Shown one piece after another: positions 19,580 through 45,856 of a stretch of 64,000 nucleotides of DNA. A program made the position numbers and the translations under genes. Source of the stretch: an uncultured Pseudomonadales bacterium (GTDB taxonomy: Bacteria; Patescibacteriota; Microgenomatia; UBA1400; CAYXSR01); NCBI GenBank assembly GCA_964430265.1, contig CAYSEI010000003.1, positions 65,070-129,069 of the forward strand, in the 5' to 3' direction. How positions within the stretch are numbered: the stretch's first letter is position 1; every line of letters starts with the position of its first letter. The notes beneath the pieces are model-generated. The model made no database searches. It was not told the DNA's origin and saw only the letters and a list, made by a program, of their open reading frames with translations.

Positions 19580-20276
19580 TTTGTTTTTCCTGTTGTTTTT
19601 TAATTGCTGCTTGAACAAGAGAGCGAGTATAGTTTTCAGAAGATGTAAATTTTTGACCTTCACTTTCCGGATTGTATATTTGGTAAAAAAGACGGATCAG
19701 CTCTTTTGTTTCCAGTTGCCGGCTGTTTAGTCCGATTCGGGTTAATTGTTTTATCATATGATCTCTTTTAGGATATAGATTGTTTTTGGCTTTTTCCAGT
19801 ATATAGTCAATTGGATAAGGAAGTTTTTGAGATTTTTTAAATGAAGAACTGATTGAGCTGGCAACTCCCAACTCAGTGGTTGAAAAAGGAATAATAACAT
19901 AAAAGTTTTTATCCAATATTTCTCTGTTTTTAACAGTTTCTTCAATAAACGAGTAATATTTTTTTAACCATTCTTTAATTTGTCTTGGCTTTTTTTTATT
20001 TATTTCATTGTCTAAAAGTTTAAGATAAGAAGAAATATCTTTTTGCTGAGAACGAATAAAAACTTGAATTGTAAAAGAAAGAGAATTTAAAAGCTCTCCG
20101 TATGCATAAATTGTTGCGTCCTGCTCTTTTTCTGATAAAAGACCAAAGTTAACAGCTGTTGTTTGTAAAATAATACAGCAGGAACCGTCTTTAAAAATAA
20201 CGATGTTGTCTTTTACATCTTCAATATCGAGGTGTTCTTGTGTGCTTGCTCTGATTGGAGTTTGGGCAGGGTTCAT
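19572..20276 (-). CDS. Hypothetical protein resembling the CagE/TrbE/VirB4 N-terminal domain (T4SS-associated)
   Basis: …IVIFKDGSCCIILQTTAVNFGLLSEKEQDATIYAYGELLNSLSFTIQVFIRSQ… resembles the N-terminal domain of VirB4/TraC; directly upstream of the ATPase gene with a 5-nt gap. Confidence 0.4.
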   Translation of the reverse strand: MNPAQTPIRASTQEHLDIEDVKDNIVIFKDGSCCIILQTTAVNFGLLSEKEQDATIYAYGELLNSLSFTIQVFIRSQQKDISSYLKLLDNEINKKKPRQIKEWLKKYYSFIEETVKNREILDKNFYVIIPFSTTELGVASSISSSFKKSQKLPYPIDYILEKAKNNLYPKRDHMIKQLTRIGLNSRQLETKELIRLFYQIYNPESEGQKFTSSENYTRSLVQAAIKKQQEKQNG

Positions 20277-20294
20277 TTTTTTATTTATATAATA

Positions 20295-21431
20295 TTAATA
20301 TAGCTCAATGTGCTCTTTTTTTCCTTCTTCTTTTATTTGTTTTTTCTTTTGAGCTTGTATACGTAATGGATCAATAATTTCTCCTTCTAACTCAAGAGTT
20401 ATTATATCAAATTCAAAGAGTTCATGTTCAGGAATTATTTTATAAGAACCGTTTTTTAATGGAGTGGCTGTATAAAATTGTCCCAGCTTGTTTGTTTTAA
20501 GCGCTCGGACAATATTGCCTTTTGAATCTTGAATTTCAATTAAAGCATTAGGGAGAATTTTGGATTCAGTGTCTAAAACCATGCCGACCAAAAGATTTGA
20601 AATGTCTGGTTTCTGTGGAATAGGCAGTTCCTTTTCAAATTCCGCTTCGGAAAACTTTTGGTCTTTTCTGCGGTTTTCTACTTTAAGAGGAGGTGTTAAA
20701 GGCTCTGCGGGTTTAACTTGTGGTTTCTTTTGAAATTTGGATTCGTGGTTGTTGATTAAAGGTTCTTCCCTGTCCTTTTTTATTTTAAGCGGTTTTTCCT
20801 TTTGTATTTCTACGGGCTTTTTTTGTACAAGAGATGTATAAACTGTTTGGTCTTTTTTCAGGTTTCTTTTGCTACTGAGCTTTCTTACTTTTACTTCAGG
20901 CTTTTGTTGTTTTTCTGTTTCTGGCTGAGTTTGTGGTCTTTTTTGTATTGAAACTTTTTGCGGTTGAATATTTTGTAAAAGATTGTTTATTCTGGCTAAT
21001 TGTTGGTCCTCTTCTCCGGCCCCGGCTTGTGCATCAGGAAGTGTTTTTAAAAAGCTTTGCAGATCTTTTGTTTGTTTTTTGTTTTTATCTTCTTTTATAT
21101 TTATTTTTTTATGATAGGTGAATTCAAAAGCGGGGGGAGTAATTGATTTCTTTTTCCAAATAAATTGTGTAGGATGGGTAATTGATTTGATAAAGTTTTT
21201 AAACCAAACGTCTAAAGGTCTTTCCTCTACCGGAAAAAAAGCCATGGCTATACCTGTAAACGCAGAGAGCACTATTAAAGGAATACGGAAAAATGAATGG
21301 ATGGGAAGAATATAAAAAAAGACGGCCACGGCAATGCCGCCGGCAAGTTCAAAAAACTGTTTTAAAGTCATGTCTCCAACCAAGCGGAACTCGTAAGAAG
21401 CAATATCTTGTGGAATTGGGTGTTGTTTCAT
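20295..21431 (-). CDS. Two-TM membrane protein, TcpE/PrgI(VirB3)-like N-terminus with K/Q-rich linker and C-terminal domain
   Basis: N-terminal …YEFRLVGDMTLKQFFELAGGIAVAVFFYILP… plus a second TM helix, a topology common to VirB3/TcpE proteins that precede VirB4; remainder lysine-rich with no homology recognised. Confidence 0.35.
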   Translation of the reverse strand: MKQHPIPQDIASYEFRLVGDMTLKQFFELAGGIAVAVFFYILPIHSFFRIPLIVLSAFTGIAMAFFPVEERPLDVWFKNFIKSITHPTQFIWKKKSITPPAFEFTYHKKINIKEDKNKKQTKDLQSFLKTLPDAQAGAGEEDQQLARINNLLQNIQPQKVSIQKRPQTQPETEKQQKPEVKVRKLSSKRNLKKDQTVYTSLVQKKPVEIQKEKPLKIKKDREEPLINNHESKFQKKPQVKPAEPLTPPLKVENRRKDQKFSEAEFEKELPIPQKPDISNLLVGMVLDTESKILPNALIEIQDSKGNIVRALKTNKLGQFYTATPLKNGSYKIIPEHELFEFDIITLELEGEIIDPLRIQAQKKKQIKEEGKKEHIELY

Positions 21432-26630: not shown

Positions 26631-27806
26631 CTATTTTTCATATATGAAATAAAAAGCAAAAGCTGTTAGTAAAAGTCCTTGCTGTAAAGTGTAAAAATAA
26701 TGATCAAACAAAGATAGTAAAAGCCAGCTTAGCAAATATATTAAAACAAAAGGATTTTTTTCCACTTTTAAAAAGGCTCTTTTAAATGATTTTGTAAGAA
26801 AACAAATAAAAATTATCAGTCCTGTAACTCCCATTTCCGAAGATAACAATAAAAAGAAATTATGTACGGGCTGAAAAAAATTAATATTTGCTGGACGCAA
26901 ATAATTAGGCAGTATAACCAAAAAATTATTTAATCCTGCACCAAATAAAATATTATCCTTTATTATTTGAAAAGAAGCCTTTATAAGAGTTAGGCGTTTA
27001 TAAAAAGAATCTAAAATTGTTTCTGATAAATAATCGTAAAAAGCTATTGCAATTCCCACAAATACAGCTGCAAACACTAAGCCAATCTTTTTGTTTTTAT
27101 TAAATATATAAAAAACCAAAACTAAAAAAGACAAGAAAATTGCCGGCAAAGAAAAAGTTAAAACTAAAGCTGTTTCAATAATAAACAATATAAACCACTG
27201 CCATAATTTTTTAAGTCTTTTAATATTTAAAGCAAGTGTAAAAGCCAAAAAAGCAGCTAAAATGTTGGAGTGGGGAAATGTTCCCATAGAAACTGCTCTT
27301 AAAGCGCCATTGGGAAGAATAATTTTTTTAATATCAGGTGAATTTATTGTGAATGGTTGTTCACCAAAAGGTACATAAGAAAGAACAGAACCGCCTTTTA
27401 AAAACTGTGCGATTGCCAAAAGTGATTGAGCTAAAGCAGAAAAAAATAGTATTTGTACAATTTTTTTTTGCTTAATCTTTTTAGTTCTTAAATAATAAAA
27501 AAGTAGGATAATTTCAGAAAACTTTAGTGCTTTATAAAATGCAATTCCTTTTCTTTGGGCAAATAAAATAAAGAAAAAAGGAAGGATAGTAAACAAAACT
27601 TTTTTTGGGTCTTTAAATATTTTTTTAAAACTGGAAAAATTAAGAATAAAAAGAAAAAAGATTAAGATATCAGTTAAATATATAGTAGGAATTAAATAGT
27701 CCTGATATATTCCCAAAACCAAAGCAGAAGAATTTTTAAAGTGCAAAGCTAAGTTGGAAGGAAGAAAAAAAATAAGTAGGTATAAAACAACAGTTTTAAA
27801 TTTCAT
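26631..27806 (-). CDS. Polytopic membrane protein (O-antigen ligase/Wzy-like polymerase candidate)
   Basis: 391 aa, ~10 predicted TM helices with a larger loop near the C-terminal third; family call from topology only. Confidence 0.3.
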   Translation of the reverse strand: MKFKTVVLYLLIFFLPSNLALHFKNSSALVLGIYQDYLIPTIYLTDILIFFLFILNFSSFKKIFKDPKKVLFTILPFFFILFAQRKGIAFYKALKFSEIILLFYYLRTKKIKQKKIVQILFFSALAQSLLAIAQFLKGGSVLSYVPFGEQPFTINSPDIKKIILPNGALRAVSMGTFPHSNILAAFLAFTLALNIKRLKKLWQWFILFIIETALVLTFSLPAIFLSFLVLVFYIFNKNKKIGLVFAAVFVGIAIAFYDYLSETILDSFYKRLTLIKASFQIIKDNILFGAGLNNFLVILPNYLRPANINFFQPVHNFFLLLSSEMGVTGLIIFICFLTKSFKRAFLKVEKNPFVLIYLLSWLLLSLFDHYFYTLQQGLLLTAFAFYFIYEK

Positions 27807-28260: not shown

Positions 28261-31200
28261 TTATTTTGTTACCCATTCTGGATGTTCACGTTGCTTGTAT
28301 TTCTCTAACAGGGGTTTAAGTGCTTCAATATCTTTTATTTCTAGGTGAACTCCTTCTTTTAACAAATCCTTAAGTCTTGTTGCTTTGTTTTCAGAAGAAA
28401 AATCTATTTCAAGTCTTTCTGCAGCTTCTTGAAAAGATTGGCACTGGTCAATTTCTTGGTCAAAGCGTAATTGATAACTGTTTTCTGGTAACCCGAGAAA
28501 GAAAAAAGTGCGGTCTAAATATTCTCTTAATTTTTGGCAGGAAGCAGCAAAATCATTTTTTGTATCTACGGGATTGTTTTCTTCTTTATGTCCATAGAGA
28601 TACAGAAGTCTTAGATAGTACCTAATGTAAGTTTCAAAATGCATCTGCATATTTTCTTTTGTGAGTTCAGCATTAGGTGGTAGGGGTTGTTTTAGAATAC
28701 TGTCAATTCCTTTGTCTGAAATTCTTTCTCGATCTTCAAATTGTAAATATGAATAATGCATTGGTAAACCTTCCCAAATAGCGGCTAGATTTCTTCTAGG
28801 ATCATCAAGTGCCATCAAATATCTACCTCTTCTCCATAGATCTTTTGGCTTTAGTTTTTTTTCTGATGCTTTTTTTCTAATGCTTTTTCTTAATCTCTTG
28901 TTAAGATCAATCTCTTCTGCTAATCTGTAATCTGGATTGAATCCTCCTGCCTCAGAATATAATGAACTACGATAAACGCCACAACCTAATAAACTTTTTC
29001 TTTGTGTGTATTGAAGATTCATGATCTCTCTAAATCTTTCCACAACGTGTAAGAGAGGTATATGTTCGTATATTTCTGGAGAAAAATCTGCTCGAAAATT
29101 ATATTGTTCTATTTGTGGAGATTGTTCGGAAAGCTTTAGTACACGATTGATATATTCAGGGTTTCTTGCAAAAGCATCTGCGCCTCCAGTTTTCATGAGT
29201 AGATTTGCCTTTTCCTCTGAATTTTTTCTTTTTGAATTTCTGAGAACAACAAGGTCTGCGGGAAGGGTGTATACTAATCCCATTCTAACGCCACCTTTGA
29301 CTGTTACTGTTTTATCTCCAAATTTAACTTCTTCGGCTTTTCCTGAAGGAGGAAAATTAAAAGTCTTTTTTATTGTATGAATATTATATCTTTGATAATC
29401 AGGGTGTTCTTTTAATTCTTGGATTTTTTCATACGTTTCATCAAATTCAACATCTTTATTTGGTCTGTTGATCAATACGATTATTTCAAAAAGATCTGGA
29501 TCTAAGGGTTCTCCATTTTCAGTAAATTGTTCAACCCAGTCTTTTAAAGTGTCTTGAATATTTTGTTCCTCTAGATAAGCAGGGATTACAATTGAGAAAC
29601 GACACTCTTCCTTCATTGGTGGAAGCTGAGAATTTATTTGTTTAAGCTCGGCAAAAAAACTTCTTTCTCCGCCATTTAATCTATATAAAGTTTTTAGTAC
29701 TCTTGGATTTGAACTTTCTAATGTCCATCTTTCTTTAAGCCTGTTTAAGTAATTGTCTTGTGCCTGAAGCCTTTCTTTAATAAGTTTTTCTGGAGTTTGA
29801 TGGGAGGATTCTCTTTTATCTAATCGTTCTTGTTTTTTTTTACCAGTTTTGTCAGTATTTTCAAAGCAAACAGCAGAAACATTATCGCCTGAATAAATAC
29901 CAGATTCTTTATTTGTTAGTGTGTTGACTATTTGTTCTGGTGTTTCCATTTCTGAAATATGTTGTTCTAAATGTTTAGCATATATTTCTCTTGTTATTTC
30001 TCTTCTTGCTTCAGGAGTTAATTTTCTCCATTCTTGACTTATGTTTCTTTCGTTTAATATTTGTCTATAAATTTCTTCTAAGGTTCTTGCTGCTTTTTCT
30101 TTGGGTTCTATTCCTTCCCAGACCCCATCGCAACACAATAAGACCCTCTCTCCTTTTTTAATTTCAATTGAAAATGTAGAAATTTTATTTTCGTCTAATT
30201 TTCTCCCTTTTTCTATTGCAGCTAGAATTCCGCTTCTTTGTGGGTGTGTAATCATTTCGGTAGGAGTAATAACTCCTTGAATTGTCTGTTTCCATACCAA
30301 GCTATCATCATCAGTTAATAATTCAACTTTTCCGTCCTTTCCTATTTTATATCCACGAGTGTCTCCTATATTTGCCCCAACAACGTTATTTCCTTGCTGT
30401 AATGAAATGGTTATTGTTGATCCGCTTCCATGTGGGACTGCAGAAAGATTATTAGTGATACTATCTGCTTTAATCAAAGCTTGTTTAAGGAGGTCTTCAT
30501 TAATTGAATATCCTTTTTCCACTTTGCTAACTAAATTTTGGACAGTAGCAAGTACAATTGCTGAAGAATGAATTTCTCCTCCATGGTAACCACCCATTCC
30601 GTCTGCAACTATGCTGATATTATCAATCTTACCTTCTTTTTTAAGCTTATTATATTTTCCCTCCAGTTCTTTAGCATTAATTTGCAGTTGATCTTCAAGA
30701 GTTTTTATATCTTCAGCATTTAAAATAAAGTTTCCGTCGACAAATATTCCATCTTCATCAGTACTCCTTCCTCCTTTTTCAGTTTTTCCGGCAGTTGTTT
30801 CTGTATAAACAGCATTTTCTTCGATTCGTACTTCTGTTTCAAAGCTAACAGTTGATGGGAGATTCTCCTTTGGCTGTATTCTTAGTTTATCTTGAATTTG
30901 TTTTATTTGCTCAACAATTGGTGTCTCTGATAAGCTTACTTTTGTTTTTCTCGCTATTTCTTTAATCCTTTTTTTTGGAGAAAGTCTTCTTAATTCTTGC
31001 TTTTCTGCTTCAGAGATCTCTAATGAATTATATAGTTCTTCATAAGTTGGAATATTTTTGATTGCTTCATACTCTGGATATTCAAATTTTTTTGATTTTA
31101 TCTCGTGTTCTGGATAACTTGTTTTTGAAACAACAAATTCCTGATATTCAGGGTATTCTTGATAATAGTCAGGATATTCTTCTGCGTACTCGTCTTCATA

Positions 31201-34200
31201 AATTGGAGAGACTAAGCTAGGAGAATGTTGTTCTTTTTCTCCCATTTCCAATGCTCTTCTGCCAGGGCGGAAAATGCTTGGCGGCCATGCTGTTATTTCC
31301 TGTATTTTCTGCGGCAATGCAAAAGATATGCTTTTAAGTTGTTCTTCAACAATTTTGGTTACAGGTCTGACCAAATCAATTGCTGCTTTTGGCACTTCTA
31401 TAATATTAGGGACTGTTTCTTCTGTTACGATTTCTCCTACACTGTCAGTGCCTTTGTATGTTGCAACCGGCATAATATCCGTAACTCCTTCTGCTGCGTC
31501 TTTGATCTGGGCAATTTCTACATAAGCGCCCAAAAATTTGCCGTCTTCAAATAGCTGTGCAACCGGGCTTTCCGCAGGAATACGTGCAACTCCGCTGGCA
31601 TTAAATTCAAAGACAAAAGTGCGGGAAGTATCGGCACTGGATGGTGTTATTATTAATTTTGCTGCATTTTGTTTTACAAACTGACCAACATTTAAACTAG
31701 TTCCCGGTAGTTGTGTTGAAGTGGCGTCTCCAAGATCTCTAAATGACTGAATGACATTACCAGCTTCGTCAACTTTGGGAATTGCCAATCCCAGCTCTGA
31801 ATATTCATAAGGGCCGTCCGGGGTCATATTGTCCCACCAACCCCTTCTTATTACACTTTTAACACCCTTGGCATTATGTATCCATTCACTTATTTTTTTG
31901 GTTACCCTAGTTGTTGTTTCGCCGTCTTGAATATATCTTTTTCTGCTTGAGAAGTCGAGTAAACCCGATTTCTGAACCTGCTGGCGGATTACAGCTTGAT
32001 TAACTATTTCTCCATCAGAATTAAGCTGGATGTTTTTTAATAAAGGAATGTCTTCATTATTAGTTAACAAAGAATAAGTATCTTTTCCAGTTGCTTGTAA
32101 GTGTGTTCCTTCCGGAATTTCCAAAGATGCTTGTTCGTGGCCAATTCTTAATCTTTCAAGAGCATCATAAGCTTTTTCAGTTGGCTCTTGGATTACTTCG
32201 GGTCTGCTGATTGTAGCAACACTTGTTCTTAAAGTACTGACGCCGTGATCTTCCAAAGTATTTTTAATTGCATCAATATCTTGGCTGATATTAGTTATTT
32301 TTTCTCCGTTGGGCAGAGTGATGTCAACTGTGTCTGTTGCTTCGTTAATTTCAAAGCTTGAACCTTCGGGCAGAAAAGCTTTTTCTCCATCATCAAGCGC
32401 CATTGCAACAGTTGGTCCCAATTCCGGGGGAGGGGCAGCTTCTTTAAGGATTCCGAGTTTTTGCAGACCTTTTTCAATTAAAGGGACAGTCTCAAGTTCA
32501 TGTCCAAGAACTTTTTCCCTAAACAAGTGGACGCCTTCCTGGGCCAAAGCGCTGATTACAAATCCTTGAGCGGCGCGGCTCACTGCTCTTAGTCCGGAAC
32601 GTTTAACCCGCCACCTGTTAAATGATTTGTTAATTTCCTTTATTCCCTGAATTTCTGCTGTATCAACGTCATTGCTGACTCCGTCCAAAAGCTTATTTCG
32701 GTGGTAATCGGTTAAATCAGCTATTAAATTATCCGGTTCAATAGTTATTTCATCGTGTTCTTTACTGTATTGCTGCAGTCTGACTTCTGCTTCGGCCAGA
32801 TTGGAAACCAAATCTGATTTTTTACCTTCACTTTGCTCCAGCCCAACAATTAAAGTGTCAATTTCATGTTCATTATTTAAAGAAATTCTAGCTTTTGCCT
32901 CGGCAATAATGGCGCTTGCATTAATAACATCTTGTTCAGTCAGTCTGTCTTTTTGCAAAACTGCATCTAAGGGCTGTAAGATTTCTGAATCAATTTCTTT
33001 CGTGTTGTACAAAAAGCGGGTGAATTCCTGCGTTGGAGTTTTTTCAGGTATTTCCCTTTCCTGAGCAGACCAGCGTGAAACCGCTGTTCTTTCCACTTTT
33101 AGTCTGCCCATTTCATGGAAAAAGCCTCTTATTCCGCCGACAGCGGTAGTAAATACGGGCATTGTTCCAGCAGAAACTAGGCTTGCAAGTTCCTGGTTAC
33201 CGGTCAGTCTTAAGGTAAGGCCGGCAAAACGGGCCGGCAATTTTGCTGCTGAGGTAACCCCAGCTGCAATCGCAGACAAAGTTGTTTCGTGTAGTCCGAC
33301 GTTAATAGTTTTACCCAGGATACTTAATTCTGGTTTATTTTTAATAATTTTTTCCACTGCTTGCTCGGTAATATTTCTTTCTTGTTTTGTTCTAGCGCCA
33401 AAATGTGCTGTTCCTAAAGCAACTTGTAGTTCAGTTTCAGACAATTCTCCTAAGCATTGTTCAAGAGTCTCTTGAAGATCTCCTTCAATTCGGGCGCGTC
33501 CGGCTTGGTGGTGCAGCCAGGTTTTCATTTCATTGGCTGTTTCCAAAAGGGTGTCTCCGTAAAAAAGGGAGGAGGGAAGTAATTCAGGTTTTTTCTTAGC
33601 AATTTCCCGGGCATAATCATGGACTTTGCTGATAAAGCCTTCTTCTGTCATACCTTGTGTAGGAATCTCAAACCCTTCAATTGTTTGCGCATCGGGCATT
33701 AATCCTGATGCCGCATATTCAATTGCCAAGTTTCTTAGACTATCAACAATCCCTTTATGAAACGTATCAGCTTCAGGATTTAGAAGAACAACTCTTTCTC
33801 CGCTGGAAGTGATGAGTTCTTTTTTCTTAGCAAATATATCTTCCGCCTCAGGCAGGAAACGCTGTGCCATTTCTGTCATTGCTTTTCTGTGGGCTTCCAT
33901 CCCGGCCTGACCAGCAAAAATGTTTTCTTCTTGCTCAATTCTTTTTTGTGCGTCTGCAGTTGCCCTAAAGTCAAAATATTCTTTGGCCAAATCATGCTTC
34001 CAGACTCGAACCGCAAATTCCTTTGCCCGCTTAAAAAATCCAGCTTCTTTGTATGCTTCAACAGCGCCAGTAAAAACACTGCCCATTTTATTTAGGAATC
34101 CTGAGGAATTTTTAAAATGTTTTCTTACATAAGAAAGTACACCTTTCTGACTACCGACGGTTTCAGTTCTTTCAAGCATCCCCATATCTCTTGCCATTTC

Positions 34201-37164
34201 AACTTCTGCCCGTGGAGCAGCTGCAAGAGCTGCTCTAAATACTTCACTCAATTCCGGCTCCGGTTCTTTCCCAGAAACTGTTATGTCTTCAGAATCATCA
34301 TATTCTTCAGTGTGAGTATTTTCTTCATATTCAGTATCTTCGTATTCAACGTCGGGATATTCTGTTTGGGAAGTAGGAGTTTCTGTAGAAGTTTCTAGAT
34401 CAGAGGCTTCAGCTTTTTCCTCAATTTCAAGATCATCTTTAGGTATGCCTATTTGTTCATAAACTGTAACTTTTTCTTGGTCAGGCAATGATTCCAAAGT
34501 GTCTTTGTTTTGAATAAATTTTCTTTCCGGAATTGTTTTTGATTTTAGAATATCAGGTCTTTCCGGAGAAGTAGGCTTATCCGGAAATTCGGGAACGTCG
34601 ACTGCTCGGCGTCTTTCAAAAAGAGTGAGACCTTTTAAAACGTGTTCGGAAATGTCACTCATCCGCAATTCTCTTGGAGATCCGTCTTTTCCCTCGCCGA
34701 CCTTCCGTGTCCAGCGAGTTCTTAATTTATCTCCTTGTTTTGTAAAGCTTCTGCCTTGCTGTTTTTCTTCTTCAGTAAAATATTCGTCCATAAACTGTTC
34801 AAAGCTTAATGATCGAAGCCGGTTAAACTCTTCCCAAGCTTGATTTAATTCGGGGTTTTCTTCTGTGTTAAAAGGATTGTTTTCTGTATCAGCATTTTGT
34901 ATGACGGTTTTTAATTTTTCTTTTACTTGTTCAGTTGTTAATTCACCGGTTTGTAAAATTGGGGTAAGTTTTTGGGAAACAATTTGTAAGGTCTGTAAAT
35001 CCATAAAAGGTGTTTCGGAAAATCCTTTTCTTTCTTCTGATAGTGCTTGCATTTCTCCGGTTATATTCTCCAAGCTCCAGTCAATTTGGCTGGCCAGGCT
35101 TTGCCTCTCTCCACTTTTCTGTATTTTGGTTCGTTGTTCTTTTACATTCCCAGTTTGCTGTTCAAAAGCTTGTATTTTTTGTTGGTATTCTTCCAACTGG
35201 TGTTGGTATTCTTGTTGAGCATTTTGGTAGCGGACAACATCTACTGCCATGGACCCAATAACACTGCGCACATTATTTCTGTCCAAACCGCTCAATACTT
35301 TTAAGGCGGTAGAAGTGCGTACACTTGGATCGGAGAAATATCCAGAGCGGTCGGCAATTTCTTGAATTTGGCTGAGTAGTTTTTCTACTGAAGTTTCCGA
35401 GTTTTCTTGTTTTAGCTCCTTTAAAATATTTCTGATTGTTTCAACAGCTTTTTGTGACCCTGGTTTGTTTAAAAACTCATCAATGTCTAATTCTTCTCCG
35501 GTTTCAACAACTAAGGGAAACTTAATGTCTTCAATCGTTTCTATTTCCGGTGCTTTAACAGCAACTTCTGCGGTTTCTTCACCTTTGTCTGCAATTTCTG
35601 TTTCTGCTTCCGGTTCTTTATCCGGCTGGTATTCTTCCTCGTAGTCTCCGTGCAATGCATGTTCAGAAGCATCACCCCTTCTGGCATGTTCTGTTTGGAT
35701 ATTTTCATGATCATCCAGTGATTCGGTTTTTTCTGGCTTTTTTAAGGAGAGATTTTCTTTATCAACCAGTATTTTGTCGCCTTCCTGCGGAACTAGGCTG
35801 ATTCTTTTAACAACTTCCCAGTTATAAAAGTCTCCGGGCCTTGTTTGTGTGTGGGCTGGTCCGGATCCGGAATCTGTAATGACTGCAATTTGTTGCAGAT
35901 CCAAGTCTTTTAAATATTCATTGTTTGTATTCAGGGATATTTTTTCCAGTTTTTTACCATTAGGAAGTTCAATAGGCTCATTTAAATAGAGTGTGGTGCC
36001 TTGCTGATCTTCTTGTTCAACTGCTTCTGGGTTGGCTACTTTAATTTTTACAATTTCATCTTTTTGTTTTTCTGTTTCTGTTGGCAGTGGTTCTTCTGAG
36101 ATTTCTTCTCCCGGCACTCCATTTGGATATACGGTTTCAAAAAGGCCGGGAAAATATTGGTCGACCACTTCTCTTGGTAGTCCTTCGGCATAGTCTAAAA
36201 AGTCTTTTTGGTATTCTGCAAGTTCTTGGGCAAGCTTGGGATATTTTTTAATAGCTTCTGGACTAGTAAGCGTTTTCTGTTCAGTAATTGCTTGTTTGTT
36301 TCTCCAGTCAAGAAGACCCTTTTCCATTAATTCTTTTACGCTTGTACTGGGAAAATCAAACTTTTGTGTCTGATCAGTTGCAATTGCTGCCTCACCAACA
36401 CCTTTGTTTTTTAATTCAATTGAAAGATTATTAATTGCTTCTTGAACTTCGCTTAGATATGAATCCAAGCTTTCTTTATTTTCTTGATAATATGAATTTC
36501 TTTGCTCTACGGACATAATTTCTTGCTCTTTTTGCCCGGTTTCTTCTGTTGAAGCCTGGGGTTGTTCTTCCTGGTTTAAAACGCGTCCGCTTTCATCAAA
36601 GTCTTGTTGAGGTTGTACTTCTTGTTCAGTTTTAATATCGCCGTATTCGTCAATTTCTGGTTTCTTTTGGGTTTGCATATTGGGTTCTTGTTCAGGTTCA
36701 TCTTGTTTTTTTGACTCTTTTAAAATTGATGTTGGTGCTTTTTTATGAATTTCTCTGATTTGTGCCATAATTCTGTAAGAAGACTTGTTCAATCGTTTGA
36801 TTGTCTCCCCACTTATCCCCGGTTTTTTTACTGCTTCAATTAACTGTTGACTTTTTTCATTTAATTGTTGCAAGGTTTGTTTTAAAGCCTCTTTGCCTCC
36901 TGGATAGTTTTGAACCCACTCAGCTTTTTTTTCCGGAGTCCATTCCTTTTGTTCTTGGATGTCAGGACCTGAAGTGGTTTCGGTTGTTTCTTTTTGTTTT
37001 GGTTGGGCTGTTTCAATTTCCGGAGTGCTTTCCGCGGCAGGTTTTTCTTGGACAGGGACTTCTGCATCCGGAGTTTCTACAGAGCCGGGCTCTTCTACTG
37101 AAGCGGGTGATTCTTTTGGTACATCGGGATTAATATTAGCTTCTGGATTCTTGGTTTCCGGCAT
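28261..37164 (-). CDS. Giant (2967 aa) multidomain protein with PP2C-type Ser/Thr phosphatase domain and C-terminal GT-A (family 2-like) glycosyltransferase domain
   Basis: Uninterrupted 8.9-kb ORF; PP2C motifs ISIVADGMGGYHGGE (about nt 30600) and LLCCDGVWEGIEP (about nt 30120); GT-A signature RFSIVIPAYLEEQNIQDTL…IIVLINRPN (about nt 29520-29600); acidic, repeat-poor N-terminal 1800 aa. Confidence 0.75.
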   Translation of the reverse strand: MPETKNPEANINPDVPKESPASVEEPGSVETPDAEVPVQEKPAAESTPEIETAQPKQKETTETTSGPDIQEQKEWTPEKKAEWVQNYPGGKEALKQTLQQLNEKSQQLIEAVKKPGISGETIKRLNKSSYRIMAQIREIHKKAPTSILKESKKQDEPEQEPNMQTQKKPEIDEYGDIKTEQEVQPQQDFDESGRVLNQEEQPQASTEETGQKEQEIMSVEQRNSYYQENKESLDSYLSEVQEAINNLSIELKNKGVGEAAIATDQTQKFDFPSTSVKELMEKGLLDWRNKQAITEQKTLTSPEAIKKYPKLAQELAEYQKDFLDYAEGLPREVVDQYFPGLFETVYPNGVPGEEISEEPLPTETEKQKDEIVKIKVANPEAVEQEDQQGTTLYLNEPIELPNGKKLEKISLNTNNEYLKDLDLQQIAVITDSGSGPAHTQTRPGDFYNWEVVKRISLVPQEGDKILVDKENLSLKKPEKTESLDDHENIQTEHARRGDASEHALHGDYEEEYQPDKEPEAETEIADKGEETAEVAVKAPEIETIEDIKFPLVVETGEELDIDEFLNKPGSQKAVETIRNILKELKQENSETSVEKLLSQIQEIADRSGYFSDPSVRTSTALKVLSGLDRNNVRSVIGSMAVDVVRYQNAQQEYQHQLEEYQQKIQAFEQQTGNVKEQRTKIQKSGERQSLASQIDWSLENITGEMQALSEERKGFSETPFMDLQTLQIVSQKLTPILQTGELTTEQVKEKLKTVIQNADTENNPFNTEENPELNQAWEEFNRLRSLSFEQFMDEYFTEEEKQQGRSFTKQGDKLRTRWTRKVGEGKDGSPRELRMSDISEHVLKGLTLFERRRAVDVPEFPDKPTSPERPDILKSKTIPERKFIQNKDTLESLPDQEKVTVYEQIGIPKDDLEIEEKAEASDLETSTETPTSQTEYPDVEYEDTEYEENTHTEEYDDSEDITVSGKEPEPELSEVFRAALAAAPRAEVEMARDMGMLERTETVGSQKGVLSYVRKHFKNSSGFLNKMGSVFTGAVEAYKEAGFFKRAKEFAVRVWKHDLAKEYFDFRATADAQKRIEQEENIFAGQAGMEAHRKAMTEMAQRFLPEAEDIFAKKKELITSSGERVVLLNPEADTFHKGIVDSLRNLAIEYAASGLMPDAQTIEGFEIPTQGMTEEGFISKVHDYAREIAKKKPELLPSSLFYGDTLLETANEMKTWLHHQAGRARIEGDLQETLEQCLGELSETELQVALGTAHFGARTKQERNITEQAVEKIIKNKPELSILGKTINVGLHETTLSAIAAGVTSAAKLPARFAGLTLRLTGNQELASLVSAGTMPVFTTAVGGIRGFFHEMGRLKVERTAVSRWSAQEREIPEKTPTQEFTRFLYNTKEIDSEILQPLDAVLQKDRLTEQDVINASAIIAEAKARISLNNEHEIDTLIVGLEQSEGKKSDLVSNLAEAEVRLQQYSKEHDEITIEPDNLIADLTDYHRNKLLDGVSNDVDTAEIQGIKEINKSFNRWRVKRSGLRAVSRAAQGFVISALAQEGVHLFREKVLGHELETVPLIEKGLQKLGILKEAAPPPELGPTVAMALDDGEKAFLPEGSSFEINEATDTVDITLPNGEKITNISQDIDAIKNTLEDHGVSTLRTSVATISRPEVIQEPTEKAYDALERLRIGHEQASLEIPEGTHLQATGKDTYSLLTNNEDIPLLKNIQLNSDGEIVNQAVIRQQVQKSGLLDFSSRKRYIQDGETTTRVTKKISEWIHNAKGVKSVIRRGWWDNMTPDGPYEYSELGLAIPKVDEAGNVIQSFRDLGDATSTQLPGTSLNVGQFVKQNAAKLIITPSSADTSRTFVFEFNASGVARIPAESPVAQLFEDGKFLGAYVEIAQIKDAAEGVTDIMPVATYKGTDSVGEIVTEETVPNIIEVPKAAIDLVRPVTKIVEEQLKSISFALPQKIQEITAWPPSIFRPGRRALEMGEKEQHSPSLVSPIYEDEYAEEYPDYYQEYPEYQEFVVSKTSYPEHEIKSKKFEYPEYEAIKNIPTYEELYNSLEISEAEKQELRRLSPKKRIKEIARKTKVSLSETPIVEQIKQIQDKLRIQPKENLPSTVSFETEVRIEENAVYTETTAGKTEKGGRSTDEDGIFVDGNFILNAEDIKTLEDQLQINAKELEGKYNKLKKEGKIDNISIVADGMGGYHGGEIHSSAIVLATVQNLVSKVEKGYSINEDLLKQALIKADSITNNLSAVPHGSGSTITISLQQGNNVVGANIGDTRGYKIGKDGKVELLTDDDSLVWKQTIQGVITPTEMITHPQRSGILAAIEKGRKLDENKISTFSIEIKKGERVLLCCDGVWEGIEPKEKAARTLEEIYRQILNERNISQEWRKLTPEARREITREIYAKHLEQHISEMETPEQIVNTLTNKESGIYSGDNVSAVCFENTDKTGKKKQERLDKRESSHQTPEKLIKERLQAQDNYLNRLKERWTLESSNPRVLKTLYRLNGGERSFFAELKQINSQLPPMKEECRFSIVIPAYLEEQNIQDTLKDWVEQFTENGEPLDPDLFEIIVLINRPNKDVEFDETYEKIQELKEHPDYQRYNIHTIKKTFNFPPSGKAEEVKFGDKTVTVKGGVRMGLVYTLPADLVVLRNSKRKNSEEKANLLMKTGGADAFARNPEYINRVLKLSEQSPQIEQYNFRADFSPEIYEHIPLLHVVERFREIMNLQYTQRKSLLGCGVYRSSLYSEAGGFNPDYRLAEEIDLNKRLRKSIRKKASEKKLKPKDLWRRGRYLMALDDPRRNLAAIWEGLPMHYSYLQFEDRERISDKGIDSILKQPLPPNAELTKENMQMHFETYIRYYLRLLYLYGHKEENNPVDTKNDFAASCQKLREYLDRTFFFLGLPENSYQLRFDQEIDQCQSFQEAAERLEIDFSSENKATRLKDLLKEGVHLEIKDIEALKPLLEKYKQREHPEWVTK

Positions 37165-37517
37165 TATATTTTCCCTAGATATTTTTTACGGAAATTGGAA
37201 AGGACGTCAATTAAAAAACTATCAATATCCGGTATCTTTTCTTTGATAAAGTCCTGGGTCTCTTTTTCAGTGGCATTGTTTTCCACCATTTGGACAAATT
37301 CTTTTCTATCTTCTTCCTCCATTTTAGCCAGTATTTTGGCATTAATGGTTCTTTGCAGCAAGTCTTGAAGATCAGCTTTTATTTTTTCAATTACCTGGGG
37401 GTCCATTTTGGCGGGATATTTTTTTTCTTTAACTAGTTGGTCAATAAAAGTTTCAAGGGAAGTATCAGCTTTGCTTTCTTCCGGGGGAGAATTTGTTTGG
37501 TCACTTTGGGCAGGCAT
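37164..37517 (-). CDS. Small helical hypothetical protein (117 aa), co-operonic with the giant gene
   Basis: Stop overlaps the start region of the giant ORF; charged helical sequence. Confidence 0.45.
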   Translation of the reverse strand: MPAQSDQTNSPPEESKADTSLETFIDQLVKEKKYPAKMDPQVIEKIKADLQDLLQRTINAKILAKMEEEDRKEFVQMVENNATEKETQDFIKEKIPDIDSFLIDVLSNFRKKYLGKI

Positions 37518-42094: not shown

Positions 42095-43579
42095 TTAGGT
42101 TCTTCTGTTTCTTTCTGAAAGCTGTGCTTTAGTAAGCGCATCGCTTCTTCTCTGACGTCTCCATTGCTGATAAGATTGACGTACTTGCATAGGTCTTGCC
42201 ATACTGCCGGCAATTTGTTGGGCAACCATTCCACCCATTTTATCTTCAACACCAAAAGCTCCCTTAACAATTTCAGGTACTTTGGTAATCATTAAGATCA
42301 TGCCAAAGCCGATTACGGACAGAATTGGATTACCAAGAGAATTTCCTGATGTATTGAAGAATCCGAATAATGGAGGGACCCAAACGTTTTCATCGTTTTC
42401 AGTTGCACTATAATAACCCACATCGCAAGAAACACACCAAGGGTTTGAATCATCATTACATGCAGAATCACAATCTCCTGGTGTTACGTGTGATCTATTT
42501 CCCATCATTAAAGCGGCAACAAGAAACATTATCCCTACGGCGGGAAAAACTAAGATATTTGCAAGCAGGCTTTTAATCCAGTTTTTAAAACTGTCATTTC
42601 CGGGAATAGCGTTAAATAGAATTACTAAAGGTGAAAAAACAATTTGAACAACAACACTGACATATGTTTTTGCCAGTGAAAAGAAAATTTTGGCAATGTT
42701 AAAGAAAAGAACAAAAAACATAAAGGTAAACCCCAAATTTCCAACAAGTTTTCCTGAGATCCACCCAAGTCCTCGTCGGACTAAATTTTCATCACCAAAA
42801 AGACTATTGACTAAGTTATCCAATGCATGAGCAGGAGCTCTGGCAAAAAGCTTTTTACCAGAGAAGGTTATTTCAAACAGGTTTTTTCTTAATAAGTTTT
42901 GAATTACTTCTTCGGAACTAGTAATTAAACCGGAAAATTGTAAAAGACCGACAAAACCGTAAATAATAATATAAATAAGGTCAATTAGTAATCCGGCAAT
43001 TGCATAGGAAAAAGTAATTAAAAGCAATGTAACTACAATCCTTGGGAGGGCGGATTGCACAGTAATAACTGTTTGCGGGTCAATCTTGCTTCTAAACATT
43101 ATCATGAAGCCAACTATTATAAATATAAAAACAAAAAATACATAAGAGAGATTTCTAAAAGCCTTCCAGATTTCCAAAAAAGGAGCCAGTGCACGCCATC
43201 CTGTTGAATTTTCTTGTGCAAAAGCAGGGGAAGCAATCCCAATCCTTTGTCCAATATCTGCAAAATATTCAATACTGCTTGCGGGTGGACTGTCAATCAT
43301 GTAAGCAACTTGATTGGTTAACATTGGAATTAAACCGCTGGTACTTCCGTCTTGTTCGGAAGTTTCATACATGACTGTATTCAAGGATCCTGAGGTTGCT
43401 GCTACTGTTTGTGCCACCCAGCATTCTTGGTTCATCTGACCTTCTTCACATTTCTCCAGTGCATTTTTAAAGCTTTGTTGAGCTTCAGATTGGGCAATAG
43501 CAGGATTAGGGGATAAGAAAAGGAAAGCGGTAAAAACAAACAGTAAACTAACAAATATAATAGTTTTTAAATTTTTCAT
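42095..43579 (-). CDS. Polytopic membrane protein with signal peptide and large N-terminal extracytoplasmic domain (VirB6/TrbL-like candidate)
   Basis: Signal peptide ending AIAQ, ~150-aa periplasmic domain, at least 5 TM helices, Cys-rich loop; immediately downstream of the pilin array. Confidence 0.45.
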   Translation of the reverse strand: MKNLKTIIFVSLLFVFTAFLFLSPNPAIAQSEAQQSFKNALEKCEEGQMNQECWVAQTVAATSGSLNTVMYETSEQDGSTSGLIPMLTNQVAYMIDSPPASSIEYFADIGQRIGIASPAFAQENSTGWRALAPFLEIWKAFRNLSYVFFVFIFIIVGFMIMFRSKIDPQTVITVQSALPRIVVTLLLITFSYAIAGLLIDLIYIIIYGFVGLLQFSGLITSSEEVIQNLLRKNLFEITFSGKKLFARAPAHALDNLVNSLFGDENLVRRGLGWISGKLVGNLGFTFMFFVLFFNIAKIFFSLAKTYVSVVVQIVFSPLVILFNAIPGNDSFKNWIKSLLANILVFPAVGIMFLVAALMMGNRSHVTPGDCDSACNDDSNPWCVSCDVGYYSATENDENVWVPPLFGFFNTSGNSLGNPILSVIGFGMILMITKVPEIVKGAFGVEDKMGGMVAQQIAGSMARPMQVRQSYQQWRRQRRSDALTKAQLSERNRRT

Positions 43580-43623
43580 TGCTTTGATTTTAATTAATTT
43601 TACTCTTATTTACAAGCTGATGT

Positions 43624-43953
43624 TTAGTTAACAATTTTAAAAACAGTTACTTCAACACCGGTAAAGGATTCAATTATTCGGAATATAAACCAGACTCCTA
43701 TTATCAATATTAATCCAATTAATGCAGTAGTAATTGTTTTTTTTGCTTGCTGGGTTTGTTCTGGGTTTGCTCCTGCGGTAAGGAATTGGAAACCTCCAAT
43801 TAAAAGCATAATAAAAAGTACAATTGCACCGGCAGTGGTGATCAAAGATAAAATATTGCCAATCAATATTTCCAGATCGCCAAAGTCTGCCGGTTCATTT
43901 GCAGGAGAATCCCATTCTTCTAATTGAGCATAAACAGTTGATACTAGGCTCAT
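43624..43953 (-). CDS. VirB2/TrbC-like pilin paralog
   Basis: Leader ending VYAQ; helix 1, GGFQFLTAGANPEQ…AKKTITTALIGLILI, helix 2: a two-helix pilin pattern shared with the neighbours. Confidence 0.5.
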   Translation of the reverse strand: MSLVSTVYAQLEEWDSPANEPADFGDLEILIGNILSLITTAGAIVLFIMLLIGGFQFLTAGANPEQTQQAKKTITTALIGLILIIGVWFIFRIIESFTGVEVTVFKIVN

Positions 43954-43962
43954 AAATATGTT

Positions 43963-44343
43963 TTATCTAATAGATGGGATGTCAATTTCGCTAAAGCTGA
44001 CGCCAAAGAATTGACCCACCAATTGCATAACTGCCCAAGCTGCGGCAACAATTGCCAAGCCAACTAAAGCAGCAGTTATTTTGTTGCGTGCCTCTTCATA
44101 TTGTGCTTTGTCTCCACCTGAGGTTATCCATTGAATTCCGCCCCAGACTAGGTATACAAAGGTTAAAAGTCCGGCGATTGCCAAAATAACAGTAATGCCA
44201 TTTTGAATTAATTGTCCTAATCTGCCTTCGGGAACGCCTTGTTCTGGCGGTTCCACTACAATGTCTTGTGCATAAGCAACAGATCCAGACAATAAAGTTG
44301 TTAAAACTGAACTGCCTAATTTTGCTAATTTTTTCATATTCAC
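43963..44343 (-). CDS. VirB2/TrbC-like pilin paralog
   Basis: Signal peptide ending AYAQ; WGGIQWITSGGDKAQYEEARNKITAALVGLAIVAAAW core. Confidence 0.5.
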   Translation of the reverse strand: MNMKKLAKLGSSVLTTLLSGSVAYAQDIVVEPPEQGVPEGRLGQLIQNGITVILAIAGLLTFVYLVWGGIQWITSGGDKAQYEEARNKITAALVGLAIVAAAWAVMQLVGQFFGVSFSEIDIPSIR

Positions 44344-44399
44344 CTCCTTTAATCTTATTTTTTAATTATAACTATCCCTTCTCTGTTGTCAAGGGAAAA

Positions 44400-44756
44400 T
44401 TAGATACCGAGATTAAATACTGCGTTTGTTCCGGTTGTCCCAATACCCAAGAATTTAATTGCCAGCCGCCAAATTACCCAAGCCACTGCTAGTAATGCAA
44501 GTCCAATCAAAGAATGAAGCATTTTGTTGCGTGCATCTTCTACCCGTGACTTGTCGCCTTCAGCAGTAATATATTCTAAAGCACCCCATACAAAATATCC
44601 CAGTGTAAGAAGGGCTCCAATAGCAATTGCAAAGGTAACTATATTAGAAACAAGAGTTCCAATATTTTTGATTTCAAACAATGCATCTGCTTCATCCCGG
44701 ATATTAGTGTTTACGGGTTGTGCGTATACTGGAGGAATAATGTTTAATAAATTCAT
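44400..44756 (-). CDS. VirB2/TrbC-like pilin paralog
   Basis: VYAQ leader; WGALEYITAEGDKSRVEDARNKMLHSLIGLALLAVAW core. Confidence 0.5.
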   Translation of the reverse strand: MNLLNIIPPVYAQPVNTNIRDEADALFEIKNIGTLVSNIVTFAIAIGALLTLGYFVWGALEYITAEGDKSRVEDARNKMLHSLIGLALLAVAWVIWRLAIKFLGIGTTGTNAVFNLGI

Positions 44757-44757
44757 T

Positions 44758-45093
44758 TTATTGTGGTGTTGGCCAAACTATATTTAATATATCAAAACCA
44801 AAGATTGCTTCCGCCAGGATCATAATAGCAAAGGATCCGGCTAAAAGAGCCATACCAATGAAAGCATGAGTGATTTTATTTTTAGCTGCTTCCAGTTTAT
44901 CTGGTTTGCCTTCACTCATCAGCCAGTCAACTGCACCCCAGACAAAGTATAGAAGAAGAGCCACACCGCCTACGACAACAACAGTCCTCCATAAACGGAC
45001 AAATAATGGTGCAAGTGGGTTACCGGCAACGCCAGTATATCCGCCTTCTGAATTTGGCAAAACTGGATTAGTAATTTGTGCTATTTTTTTCAT
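44758..45093 (-). CDS. VirB2/TrbC-like pilin paralog
   Basis: WGAVDWLMSEGKPDKLEAAKNKITHAFIGMALLAGSF core. Confidence 0.5.
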   Translation of the reverse strand: MKKIAQITNPVLPNSEGGYTGVAGNPLAPLFVRLWRTVVVVGGVALLLYFVWGAVDWLMSEGKPDKLEAAKNKITHAFIGMALLAGSFAIMILAEAIFGFDILNIVWPTPQ

Positions 45094-45473
45094 CAGCTCC
45101 AGAAATTTCTTATATATTCTCCCGGGTTTAATATATTTACTCCCAGGATTGATCCTACTATAAATATTACTGCATAAGCTGCCACAACTACAATAAGACC
45201 AATAGCAGCGTCTGTCAGCATTTTTTTGGATTTTTCCACTTGGTCCTGCTTACCTCCAGCAGTTATCCAATTCAGCCCGCCAATAAAAAAGTAGATAATA
45301 AAAAGAATTCCGGCAACAATTGTAAATGTGCCAATTACATTGGAAAGAATTTTTTCAAGTGTAGGAATTCCGTAATCTCCGGTATTGGGATTATAAGCTC
45401 CGGTAATTCCTTCTATTGCACCAAGATTCTCTTGGGCATAGACTTCTGTTATTAAGTTATTTAAAATTTTCAT
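45093..45473 (-). CDS. VirB2/TrbC-like pilin paralog
   Basis: VYAQ leader; IGGLNWITAGGKQDQVEKSKKMLTDAAIGLIVVVAAY core. Confidence 0.5.
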   Translation of the reverse strand: MKILNNLITEVYAQENLGAIEGITGAYNPNTGDYGIPTLEKILSNVIGTFTIVAGILFIIYFFIGGLNWITAGGKQDQVEKSKKMLTDAAIGLIVVVAAYAVIFIVGSILGVNILNPGEYIRNFWS

Positions 45474-45856
45474 ATTCCTGGTCCATAAATTTTAGGTTGT
45501 AATATTGCTGTTGCATCTTTAAAGATCAGCCATCCAAGTAAAGCAGCGATAGTAAATGAAGCAACAATGATTACCAGACCAAGAAGTGAATTAAATATTT
45601 TTTGCCAGGCGTTTTGAATTTTCTCAGGATCACCACTGGCAGTAATAAAGTCAAATCCGGCCAGAAGAAGATTAAAAAAAGTCCAAATTCCGGCAACAAT
45701 AGTTAAGGTTTTAACAATATTGCTGAGAAATCCTACCAGTCCGCCGTTGGGATTATTGTAGTCTCCATATCCGTCTTGAAGAGGGTTGCTGATATTGCCA
45801 AAAACGTCTTGCGCATAGGCAGTGGAAACAATTTTGTTATATATTTTATTAATCAT
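45470..45856 (-). CDS. VirB2/TrbC-like pilin paralog
   Basis: AYAQ leader; LAGFDFITASGDPEKIQNAWQKIFNSLLGLVIIVASF core; start trimmed to the Met giving an ATGA overlap with the upstream gene. Confidence 0.5.
   Translation of the reverse strand: MINKIYNKIVSTAYAQDVFGNISNPLQDGYGDYNNPNGGLVGFLSNIVKTLTIVAGIWTFFNLLLAGFDFITASGDPEKIQNAWQKIFNSLLGLVIIVASFTIAALLGWLIFKDATAILQPKIYGPGI

Follow-up and report, generated by a model that had tools for sequence, protein, structure and literature searches.

A 2967-residue protein with PP2C phosphatase and divergent glycosyltransferase domains inside a type IV secretion locus of a Patescibacteria genome

The 64,000-nucleotide stretch of DNA analysed here (the window) comes from an uncultured member of the Patescibacteria, also called CPR bacteria (candidate phyla radiation), and corresponds to positions 65,070 to 129,069 of contig CAYSEI010000003.1 in assembly GCA_964430265.1. 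An origin in the Patescibacteria is also what one would infer from its GC content, its array of PF18895 pilins, DUF5663 and the names of relatives (Curtissbacteria, Gracilibacteria). Its most conspicuous feature is one very large gene, the product of which we refer to as the giant. This gene occupies 28261..37164 on the minus strand and encodes 2967 aa plus a stop codon. It starts with ATG and contains no internal stop, so that the single uninterrupted open reading frame (ORF) described in an initial annotation, made from the sequence alone, is confirmed. A protein identical to the giant is present in NCBI (P0001), on a contig of 130,698 bp. From the N- to the C-terminus the giant consists of an acidic extension, the core of a protein family, a PP2C phosphatase domain and a glycosyltransferase domain of the GT-A type. 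Directly upstream on the same strand is a small gene for a protein of the DUF5663 family.

The giant gene was also said to be embedded between the two halves of a type IV secretion system (T4SS) locus, and this arrangement is borne out. On one side (17612..21431, minus strand) are genes for a VirB4 ATPase (17612-19663), a TrsD-like protein (19572-20276) and a PrgI/VirB3-like protein (20295-21431). The other side (42095..45916, minus strand) has a gene for a VirB6-like protein of 494 aa that is polytopic (42095-43579), and then six VirB2-type pilin genes in tandem (PF18895; 43624-45916). The dnaA and dnaN genes (14755-17607) come just before VirB4. The VirB4 ORF as listed, which begins with GTG, shares 92 nt with the TrsD-like ORF upstream of it; the true start is probably further downstream, and no exact match to the listed sequence is present in the protein collection. 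Downstream of the giant gene, at 26631..27806 (minus strand), is a gene for a polytopic Wzy_C protein of the O-antigen ligase or O-oligosaccharyltransferase type (PF04932, 32.3 bits against 31.7) with about seven predicted hydrophobic segments; it is 51% identical to its counterpart in a syntenic locus, L001, that is described below. Between these two genes an ORF of 117 aa (27902-28255, plus strand) converges on the giant gene and ends 6 nt from its stop. This ORF has no Pfam match and no counterpart at that position in L001, and is possibly non-coding.

In the available sections of two recent reports, T4SS loci of Patescibacteria are described as MPF-FATA-like, located near dnaA, equipped with arrays of VirB2 pilins and devoid of a relaxase (Quinonero-Coronel et al. 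2025, PMC12102498). According to the same sections there is usually no coupling protein nearby, neither substrates nor a function are known, and the only species so far open to genetics cannot grow as an epibiont without the system (PMC12102498; Wang et al. 2023, PMC10633639). The window matches this published layout, with VirB4, TrsD, PrgI, a VirB6-like protein and a pilin array near dnaA and dnaN, and with neither a relaxase nor a coupling protein. It differs from it in possessing the giant and its DUF5663 partner, since no giant phosphatase/glycosyltransferase protein, DUF5663 protein or candidate substrate is mentioned in those sections.

The partner gene (37164..37517, minus strand) encodes a small helical protein of 117 aa, which matches Pfam PF18908 (25.3 bits; cutoff 23.7). 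The gene is provided with an AGGAG-type ribosome-binding site of its own, and its TAA stop overlaps the ATG of the giant gene by 1 nt (TAATG; junction aaaataTAATGccg). Because of this overlap, translational coupling of the two genes, as proposed in the initial annotation, is plausible. The family to which the giant belongs was compared at nine loci: the window, L001, L002, L003/L004, L005 (which holds two modules), L006, L013 and L014. At all nine, a DUF5663 gene lies directly upstream of the family gene on the same strand, and in seven of them no T4SS genes were called nearby. Coupling to DUF5663 is therefore a trait of the family and not of the T4SS, a conclusion limited by the shortness of most of the seven contigs. 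No mention of DUF5663 was found in the literature searched.

Residues ~2118-2436 (29857..30813, minus strand) form a PP2C (PPM) Ser/Thr phosphatase domain that is recognised by Pfam, NCBIfam and PDB sequence matches. Pfam PF13672 (PP2C_2) covers aa 2177-2371 with 40.8 bits (E=2.3e-10), above the cutoff of 24. A phmmer search of PDB sequences matched 17 bacterial PP2C sequences, and the best of these was PstP of M. tuberculosis (1txo, E=1.7e-17); tPphA, Stp1 and MspP are matched in the PDB as well. The NCBIfam model NF033484 (Stp1_PP2C) scores 100.2 bits, well under its equivalog cutoff of 230, and the domain is therefore to be regarded as a member of the family and not as an orthologue of Stp1. 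Two insertions, at aa ~2146-2180 (~35 aa) and ~2362-2404 (~43 aa), interrupt the domain. When these are spliced out the match to PstP improves to 4e-20 and the alignment extends through the first motif, with RSTDED opposite RANNED. In the alignment with PstP, R2133…E2137-D2138 corresponds to RANNED, ADGMGG to ADGMGG and CCDG to CSDG. The match to MspP reaches residue 243 of the spliced query, beyond the GDNVS motif at 237-241, which was itself read directly from the sequence. In the coordinates of the giant the motifs are RSTDED (2133-2138), ADGMGG (2187-2192), CCDG (2344-2347) and GDNVS (2426-2430). They had been placed about 700 aa from the C-terminus; they are present, with ADGMGG 780 aa from that end. 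The concern that catalytic residues might be lacking is not borne out. All of the metal-binding residues are there (E2137/D2138, D2188/G2189, D2346 and D2427), and the domain looks catalytically intact. It shares its fold family and all four motifs (RxxxED, DGxGG, DG and DN) with PstP, Stp1 and tPphA. Those, however, are enzymes of ~250-500 aa, whereas the phosphatase of the giant is internal to 2967 aa and carries two insertions. A check against the PADLOC defence-system collection gave a weak generic PP2C match and nothing else.

The C-terminal part, aa 2450-2967 (28264..29817, minus strand), is predicted from its fold to be a divergent GT-A domain, similar to the GT2 family, with flanking helical subdomains. 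Pfam is of little help here. PF00535 (Glycos_transf_2) scores 18.5 bits, below its gathering cutoff of 23.3, and aligns over profile positions 1-64 of 168 only, so that the expected Pfam annotation was not obtained. A search with aa 2450-2967 returned 13 homologues at 30-54% identity, some of them named Curtissbacteria, Gracilibacteria or 'Nanoarchaeota' metagenome-assembled genome, and none has any Pfam domain. An AlphaFold2 model built from the alignment of homologues (pLDDT, the predicted local distance difference test, 91; pTM, the predicted template modelling score, 0.88) shows the single Rossmann-like α/β/α arrangement of the GT-A fold. The nearest solved structures are GT2 enzymes of wall-teichoic-acid and lipid-linked-glycan synthesis, and no toxin-type glycosyltransferase is found among the top 60 structural matches. 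A profile of the subfamily finds no PDB sequence at E<=10, and the relationship is therefore visible only through the fold. The claim of a GT-A signature in the last ~250 aa was thus right as to the fold; the domain comprises the last ~520 aa and the signature lies 445 aa from the C-terminus. Its key residues are IPAY (2527-2530), NRPN (2566-2569), G2661-A-D2663, GGF (2740-2742), E2750-E2751 and PRR (2789-2791). The residues that are invariant in the subfamily (IPAY.EE, N-R-P, G-A-D, GGF, E-E and P-R-R) sit at the GT2 active-site region. Compared with the envelope enzymes TarP and TarS of S. aureus, RmlT of L. monocytogenes, SpsA of B. subtilis, the PglI-like AvpGT and DPMS, identity is only 8-16%. 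Where these GT2 enzymes have the nucleotide-binding motif DGS/DD, the domain has NRPN; it has G-A-D for DxD and EE for ED, and differs further in its extra N- and C-terminal helical subdomains.

The middle of the giant, aa ~1035-1975 (31240..34062, minus strand), consists of a helical region and a beta-rich domain. When aa 961-2000 served as query for a full HMMER (phmmer) scan of 1.84 billion representatives, 180 proteins were matched at E<=1e-3, 59 of them at E<=1e-10. The middle of the giant is therefore the core, of ~850-950 aa, of a large family that comprises at least 180 representative clusters and has members mostly of 1200-1700 aa. The matches fall in two stretches, in which aa ~1040-1555 of the giant align with ~35-500 of its relatives and aa ~1665-1950 with ~540-830. 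In the first stretch are three hydrophobic segments: segments 1 and 2 at aa 1298-1345 (AIAAGVTSAAKLPARFAGL … ELASLVSAGTMPVFTTAVGGI; 33130..33273, minus strand) and segment 3 at aa ~1521-1545 (32530..32604, minus strand), which holds a QE pair conserved in the family. Their Kyte-Doolittle maxima over 19 residues (KD19) are 1.29 for segments 1 and 2, against a family median of 1.46, and 0.87 for segment 3. These are Kyte-Doolittle scans only, and the flanking charges give conflicting membrane orientations. The beta-rich domain (aa ~1670-1930; 31375..32157, minus strand) was assigned from AlphaFold2 strands with pLDDT 80-94 and carries the family motif WYDNDTP…, which in the giant reads WWDNMTP. 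The core has no Pfam model, and the predicted core model gave no match to solved structures. A Tyr/Glu-rich linker follows the core at aa ~1988-2046 (YEDEYAEEYPDYYQEYPEYQEF…; 31027..31203, minus strand), as read from the sequence, and Tyr/Glu/Pro-rich acidic linkers in fact flank the core on both sides, the other being at aa 913-940 (…EYPDVEYEDTEYEE…, ~34345-34428). The neighbouring proteins of 1229 and 1154 aa were considered as paralogues of the core and rejected, as they show no similarity to it; the 64-kb window holds no second member of the core or glycosyltransferase families.

In 73 of 149 family representatives a glycosyltransferase of the family type, detected with our A1 profile, is found directly C-terminal to the core at positions ~860-1400. 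E values range from 1e-96 to about 1e-24 among the matches listed, and the giant is matched at aa 2404-2966. The GT-A domain is thus what this family, which is widespread in the CPR, ancestrally has at its C-terminus, and the phosphatase is a lineage-specific insertion between the core and the glycosyltransferase. These relationships count against the earlier suggestion that the pairing of phosphatase with glycosyltransferase reflects the design of a host-modifying effector. Taken together, DUF5663, core and GT-A domain define, by sequence comparison, a family of the Patescibacteria that is not described in the literature searched.

The N-terminal extension, aa 1-~1000 (34165..37164, minus strand), has a net charge of about -91 and no hydrophobic segment. 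An acidic region of ~1800 aa without assigned function had been reported ahead of the two enzymatic domains. Its acidity is confirmed, and it resolves into two distinct parts, the extension and the family core, for which the charge scan gives about -38. The initial annotation found no obvious signal peptide, and a hydropathy scan agrees, because there is no hydrophobic segment at the N-terminus. By local phmmer the extension is common only to the giant and P0002/P0016, with 30-46% identity between the giant and P0002. Its modules are permuted between these two proteins. Thus aa 354-481 of the giant correspond to aa 3-134 of P0002 and aa 206-368 to aa 135-300, within a permuted region that spans aa 206-884 of the giant (window ~34513-36549) and aa 3-739 of P0002. 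The giant has one copy of a motif, (R/V)RGDxxEHALHGDYE (RRGDasEHALHGDYE, aa 495-509), and P0002 has two; the motif is absent from all other proteins fetched. Comparison of the N-terminal 960 aa with PDB sequences gave nothing meaningful, and a protein search with aa 190-960 came back empty, the list of candidates having probably been flooded with acidic low-complexity words. The extension is, on these comparisons, specific to the lineage.

P0002, of 3132 aa, is encoded in L001, a T4SS locus syntenic with the window. Both loci contain, in the same order, a sigma factor, a polyprenyl synthase, the pilin array, the VirB6-like gene, a gene of ~1100 aa, one of ~250-300 aa, DUF5663, the giant, Wzy_C, a 250-aa gene and one of ~1230 aa. 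Identity between the two is 60-73% for the pilins and 49-54% for the VirB6-like, Wzy_C and 250-aa proteins. P0002 shares the extension and the core. After the core it carries a GT9 domain, an FHA domain and a weak PP2C/SpoIIE-like domain, not PP2C followed by GT-A, so that both of the T4SS-embedded giants keep a glycosyltransferase (GT-A in the window, GT9 in P0002) and a PP2C-type domain. The last 263 aa of P0002 (~2870-3132) contain residues in the order His…Asp…Gln…Cys (GGHAML…YDP…QEDSHNC); the idea that they represent a CE-clan cysteine protease was dropped when neither Pfam nor PDB sequences supported it.

These comparisons bear on whether the giant is an artefact of assembly or annotation, in which separate genes are joined as a chimera or by a masked frameshift, or else a pseudogene in decay. 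Full-length relatives are scarce, just one further being known. A word-indexed protein search with the complete giant returned itself and P0002 only, a scan of genome contigs with the giant found as its sole match an unrelated Ruminococcaceae PP2C, and nothing was found in metagenome contigs with A5 alignment patterns or with the back-translated EHALHGDYE motif. Against an artefact of this kind stand the frame that is open for 8.9 kb, the intact catalytic motifs and the fact that the giant obeys the domain order of its family, core and then glycosyltransferase. In particular, a chimera of assembly is argued against by P0002, which comes from an independent sample, is collinear with the giant and is encoded at the corresponding place of a syntenic locus, likewise with DUF5663 as its partner. 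We regard an artefact as extremely improbable. The giant gene is real.

Only two of the nine family loci, the window and L001, have the giant inside a T4SS locus. The other modules are in different company: P0024 (L002) with Pif1 and DnaG, P0020 (L003/L004) with alanyl-tRNA synthetase (AlaRS) and ribosomal proteins, P0026 (L006) with MurD, P0075 (L013) with DNA polymerase I (Pol I), MurD and MurI, and P0019 (L014) with Rho and a LysM-M23 protein. L005 (1707-20372) contains two DUF5663-plus-large-protein modules in tandem, the first encoding a protein of 1750 aa with a C-terminal Hanks kinase and the second a protein of at least 1422 aa; P0021 and a second member are the family proteins of this locus. 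Ahead of these modules is a gene for a protein of 1066 aa that contains HopA1, a domain which takes its name from a family of type III effectors. A MurD-like ligase gene is found within a few kb of family or glycosyltransferase-subfamily genes in three unrelated loci (L006, L013, also with MurI, and L009, also with MurL), which may indicate a link to the cell wall or may be coincidence. Among 27 long-tailed family members, Pfam recognised a protein kinase domain (Pkinase) in five, GT9 in three and DUF362, YkuD, a calpain-type protease and DnaJ in one each.

The reading that we favour, tentatively and with a probability of roughly 0.4, is that the giant is a producer-resident, membrane-associated enzyme of glycosylation and phospho-regulation. 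The ORF, the identities of its domains, its place in the family, the pairing with DUF5663 and the synteny are shown, whereas location, substrates and regulatory logic are what we infer. On this model the giant would stay in the cell that makes it, held at the cytoplasmic face of the membrane by the weakly hydrophobic helices of the core. The GT-A domain, using a nucleotide-sugar, would glycosylate an acceptor bound to the envelope, perhaps a polyprenyl-linked glycan or a component of the wall or the pilus. The phosphatase would strip phosphate from Ser/Thr residues of the giant itself or of neighbouring machinery, in parallel with the Hanks kinases and FHA domains that are fused to other members. 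In this lineage the module would have been recruited into the locus of T4SS, pilins and Wzy_C, probably to modify or regulate the apparatus.

Five lines of evidence lead us to this preference. First, the seven family loci outside T4SS loci are housekeeping neighbourhoods (AlaRS, ribosomal proteins, DnaG, Pol I, MurD, MurI, Rho, LysM-M23). Second, the recognisable catalytic add-ons, except for one YkuD, need cytoplasmic co-substrates. Third, kinase, PP2C and FHA add-ons recur in the family; FHA, kinase and PP2C make up the standard triad of intracellular Ser/Thr signalling in bacteria. Fourth, the structural neighbours of the GT-A domain are enzymes of envelope polymers and lipid-linked glycans. 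Fifth, both giants keep a glycosyltransferase beside conserved Wzy_C and polyprenyl genes, which fits glycosylation of the envelope or the pilus.

Several observations weigh against a resident enzyme, and the first of them concern the chemistry of the GT-A domain. At the position of the DxD motif the giant has T-G-G-A-D-A (aa 2659-2664), in which only the second Asp is kept. All 16 members of the subfamily have x-G-A-D here, and most have EE where ED is expected, so that glycosyltransferase activity is putative; the donor and acceptor are hypothetical. The 61 other glycosyltransferase domains of the core family that were aligned have, nearly without exception, (N/E)-D-A-D and a later ED motif; E2750-E2751 of the giant stands where the rest of the family has ED, and a Glu could act as the base. 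These substitutions speak for a different proposal, in which the GT-A domain has lost transferase activity and serves as a binding module, the giant being a PP2C-bearing scaffold of the T4SS or pilus, by analogy with the FHA/PppA-type control of type VI secretion. That the Pfam GT2 score is under threshold, that the subfamily profile finds no PDB sequence and that P0002 has both an FHA and a PP2C-like domain would also suit a scaffold. However, the substituted positions are themselves invariant in the subfamily, together with N2566, R2567, P2568, D2663, GGF and PRR, which points to purifying selection on the pocket, and the second Asp of the motif, the one that binds metal, is kept. Active GT-A enzymes with single-Asp or variant motifs exist, which also counts against loss of function. 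The invariance of the substituted positions suggests that the pocket is constrained and probably functional, with altered chemistry rather than decay, and we consider a scaffold quite improbable.

The remaining points against a resident enzyme concern its anchoring and its evolution. With KD19 values of at most 1.29, the hydrophobicity of the core segments is marginal and the membrane anchoring that we propose is putative. Segment 3 has a KD19 of 0.87 in the giant and 0.64 in P0002, below all 103 other members (minimum 0.91, median 1.55). The giant is also diverging faster than the pilins and the VirB6-like and Wzy_C proteins of its locus (49-73% identity). Between the window and L001, the giant and the proteins of 304 and 1154 aa are only ~30-46% identical, and in parts only (the last two at ~30%). 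This divergence and the varied domains that are appended across the family both resemble what is seen in an effector family. Finally P0003, a stand-alone protein of 615 aa that is the closest homologue of the giant's GT-A domain (54% identity), is encoded in a third organism, where its gene immediately precedes one of 242 aa and those for PrgI, a TraC-like protein, VirB4 and Peptidase_M23. That P0003 might have split off from a giant gene was considered and rejected, since nothing similar to the giant is found in the fragment upstream of it.

It is in the light of these points that a translocated effector has to be considered. In this alternative the T4SS of the Patescibacteria would have the giant as its cargo, and possibly all of the DUF5663-coupled family. 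DUF5663 would serve as chaperone or adaptor, the moderately hydrophobic core helices would insert in the host membrane, and the two enzymatic domains would act on proteins or glycans in the cytoplasm of the host, PP2C by dephosphorylating and GT-A by glycosylating them. The giant gene is central in the T4SS locus of two organisms and P0003 adjoins PrgI, TraC-like and VirB4 genes, which makes three independent T4SS adjacencies in all. An effector would further be consistent with the lack of a signal peptide, with hydrophobic segments that are weak or intermediate, the third being specifically weakened in the two T4SS-embedded giants, with the small helical partner tightly coupled upstream, with the varying C-terminal enzymatic cassettes and rapid divergence, and with the HopA1-domain protein beside the tandem modules of L005. 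It would also suit the published picture of the CPR T4SS, in which the substrates are not known, a relaxase is absent and a nearby coupling protein is usually absent (PMC12102498, PMC10633639). On the other hand, seven of nine family loci are without nearby T4SS genes, though most of these contigs are short. The giant contains no Pfam domain of a known translocation-signal type (BID, XVIPCD or Dot/Icm-type C-terminus), so that the search for a T4SS signal called for by the initial annotation came up empty, and there is no VirD4-type coupling protein among the window ORFs scanned; the missing signal is weak evidence, because signals of the CPR T4SS have not been characterised. Moreover, it is rather in resident signalling that one expects FHA domains and Hanks kinases, the fold neighbours of the GT-A domain are enzymes of envelope biosynthesis and not toxin glycosyltransferases, and the domain is conserved across the family, not polymorphic. 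On balance we judge a translocated effector to be possible, if somewhat unlikely. A bolder form of the idea would make the family the missing cargo of the relaxase-less Patescibacteria T4SS, namely effectors that insert into membranes and glycosylate the host, that may also be equipped with a kinase, phosphatase or protease, and that are escorted by a DUF5663 chaperone. The giant would then be the version that is still in the secretion locus, with a third helix weakened to permit export. This we hold to be unlikely.

Among glycosylating toxins and effectors of modular build, clostridial TcdA/TcdB, PaTox of Photorhabdus and Lgt/SetA of Legionella may be compared with the giant, as very large proteins in which a GT-A domain is combined with other enzymatic domains and weakly hydrophobic helices. 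Among ultra-small or predatory bacteria, giant genes of the Omnitrophota lie beside T2SS/T4SS-like (secretion types II and IV) genes and pilins (West-Roberts et al., bioRxiv 10.1101/2023.11.21.568195). The domains recorded for these proteins include Ser/Thr phosphatases (10.1101/2023.11.21.568195), which the giant of the window has as well. The Omnitrophota giants, however, belong to another phylum, reach tens of thousands of aa and have different domains, and no homology has been shown.

Several other genes of the window deserve mention. An 1149-aa protein (8500-11949, minus strand) combines an N-terminal NAD-dependent sugar epimerase/dehydratase (Epimerase, GDP_Man_Dehyd) with DUF4012 at aa 726-859; a possible role is as the source of nucleotide-sugar for the local glycosyltransferases. 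The proteins of 304, 1154 and 1229 aa (37661-42091, plus strand, and 22124-25813, minus strand) have no Pfam, NCBIfam or PADLOC match, although each has a syntenic counterpart in L001, and the last of them has three hydrophobic segments at aa ~759-920. Adjoining the pilin array, 46254-52584 (plus strand) encodes a polyprenyl synthase, a sigma factor of the ECF (extracytoplasmic function) type, two genes of the GHMP-kinase family, presumably the mevalonate-pathway kinases, a diphosphomevalonate decarboxylase and an undecaprenyl-diphosphate synthase (UppS). This amounts to a cluster for the supply of isoprenoid carriers, of which the sigma factor and polyprenyl synthase are also beside the array in L001. 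Seven kb from the array, a 283-aa protein (52904-53755, minus strand) has a C-terminal T4SS_pilin domain and is thus a seventh, longer protein of this type. It is adjoined by a 571-aa SpoIID-domain protein (53802-55517, plus strand), a possible factor of cell-wall remodelling. At 58966-59400 and 61220-61434, both on the plus strand, are a gene for tmRNA (Rfam, 108.5 bits) and a pair of neighbouring tRNA-Ser genes with the anticodons TGA and GCT, of which the second abuts the start of the leucyl-tRNA synthetase (LeuRS) gene.

The individual domains of the giant are of known kinds, and large uncharacterised proteins are common in the CPR. What is not described in the literature searched is the family itself, its pairing with DUF5663, the core fold that matches no solved structure, the glycosyltransferase subfamily with its G-A-D motif and the architecture of a giant embedded in a T4SS locus. 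In at least two lineages, a two-gene module of DUF5663 and a core/GT-A protein has grown into an enzyme of ~3000 aa at the centre of a T4SS/pilin locus. This module yields a candidate effector, or else a candidate factor for glycosylation and phospho-regulation of the apparatus. The Patescibacteria depend on host cells, and the giant makes the question of what their T4SS handles a testable one. If the reading of a resident envelope enzyme is correct, the significance would be more modest: a new, CPR-specific family of glycosyltransferases that is recurrently coupled to Ser/Thr signalling.

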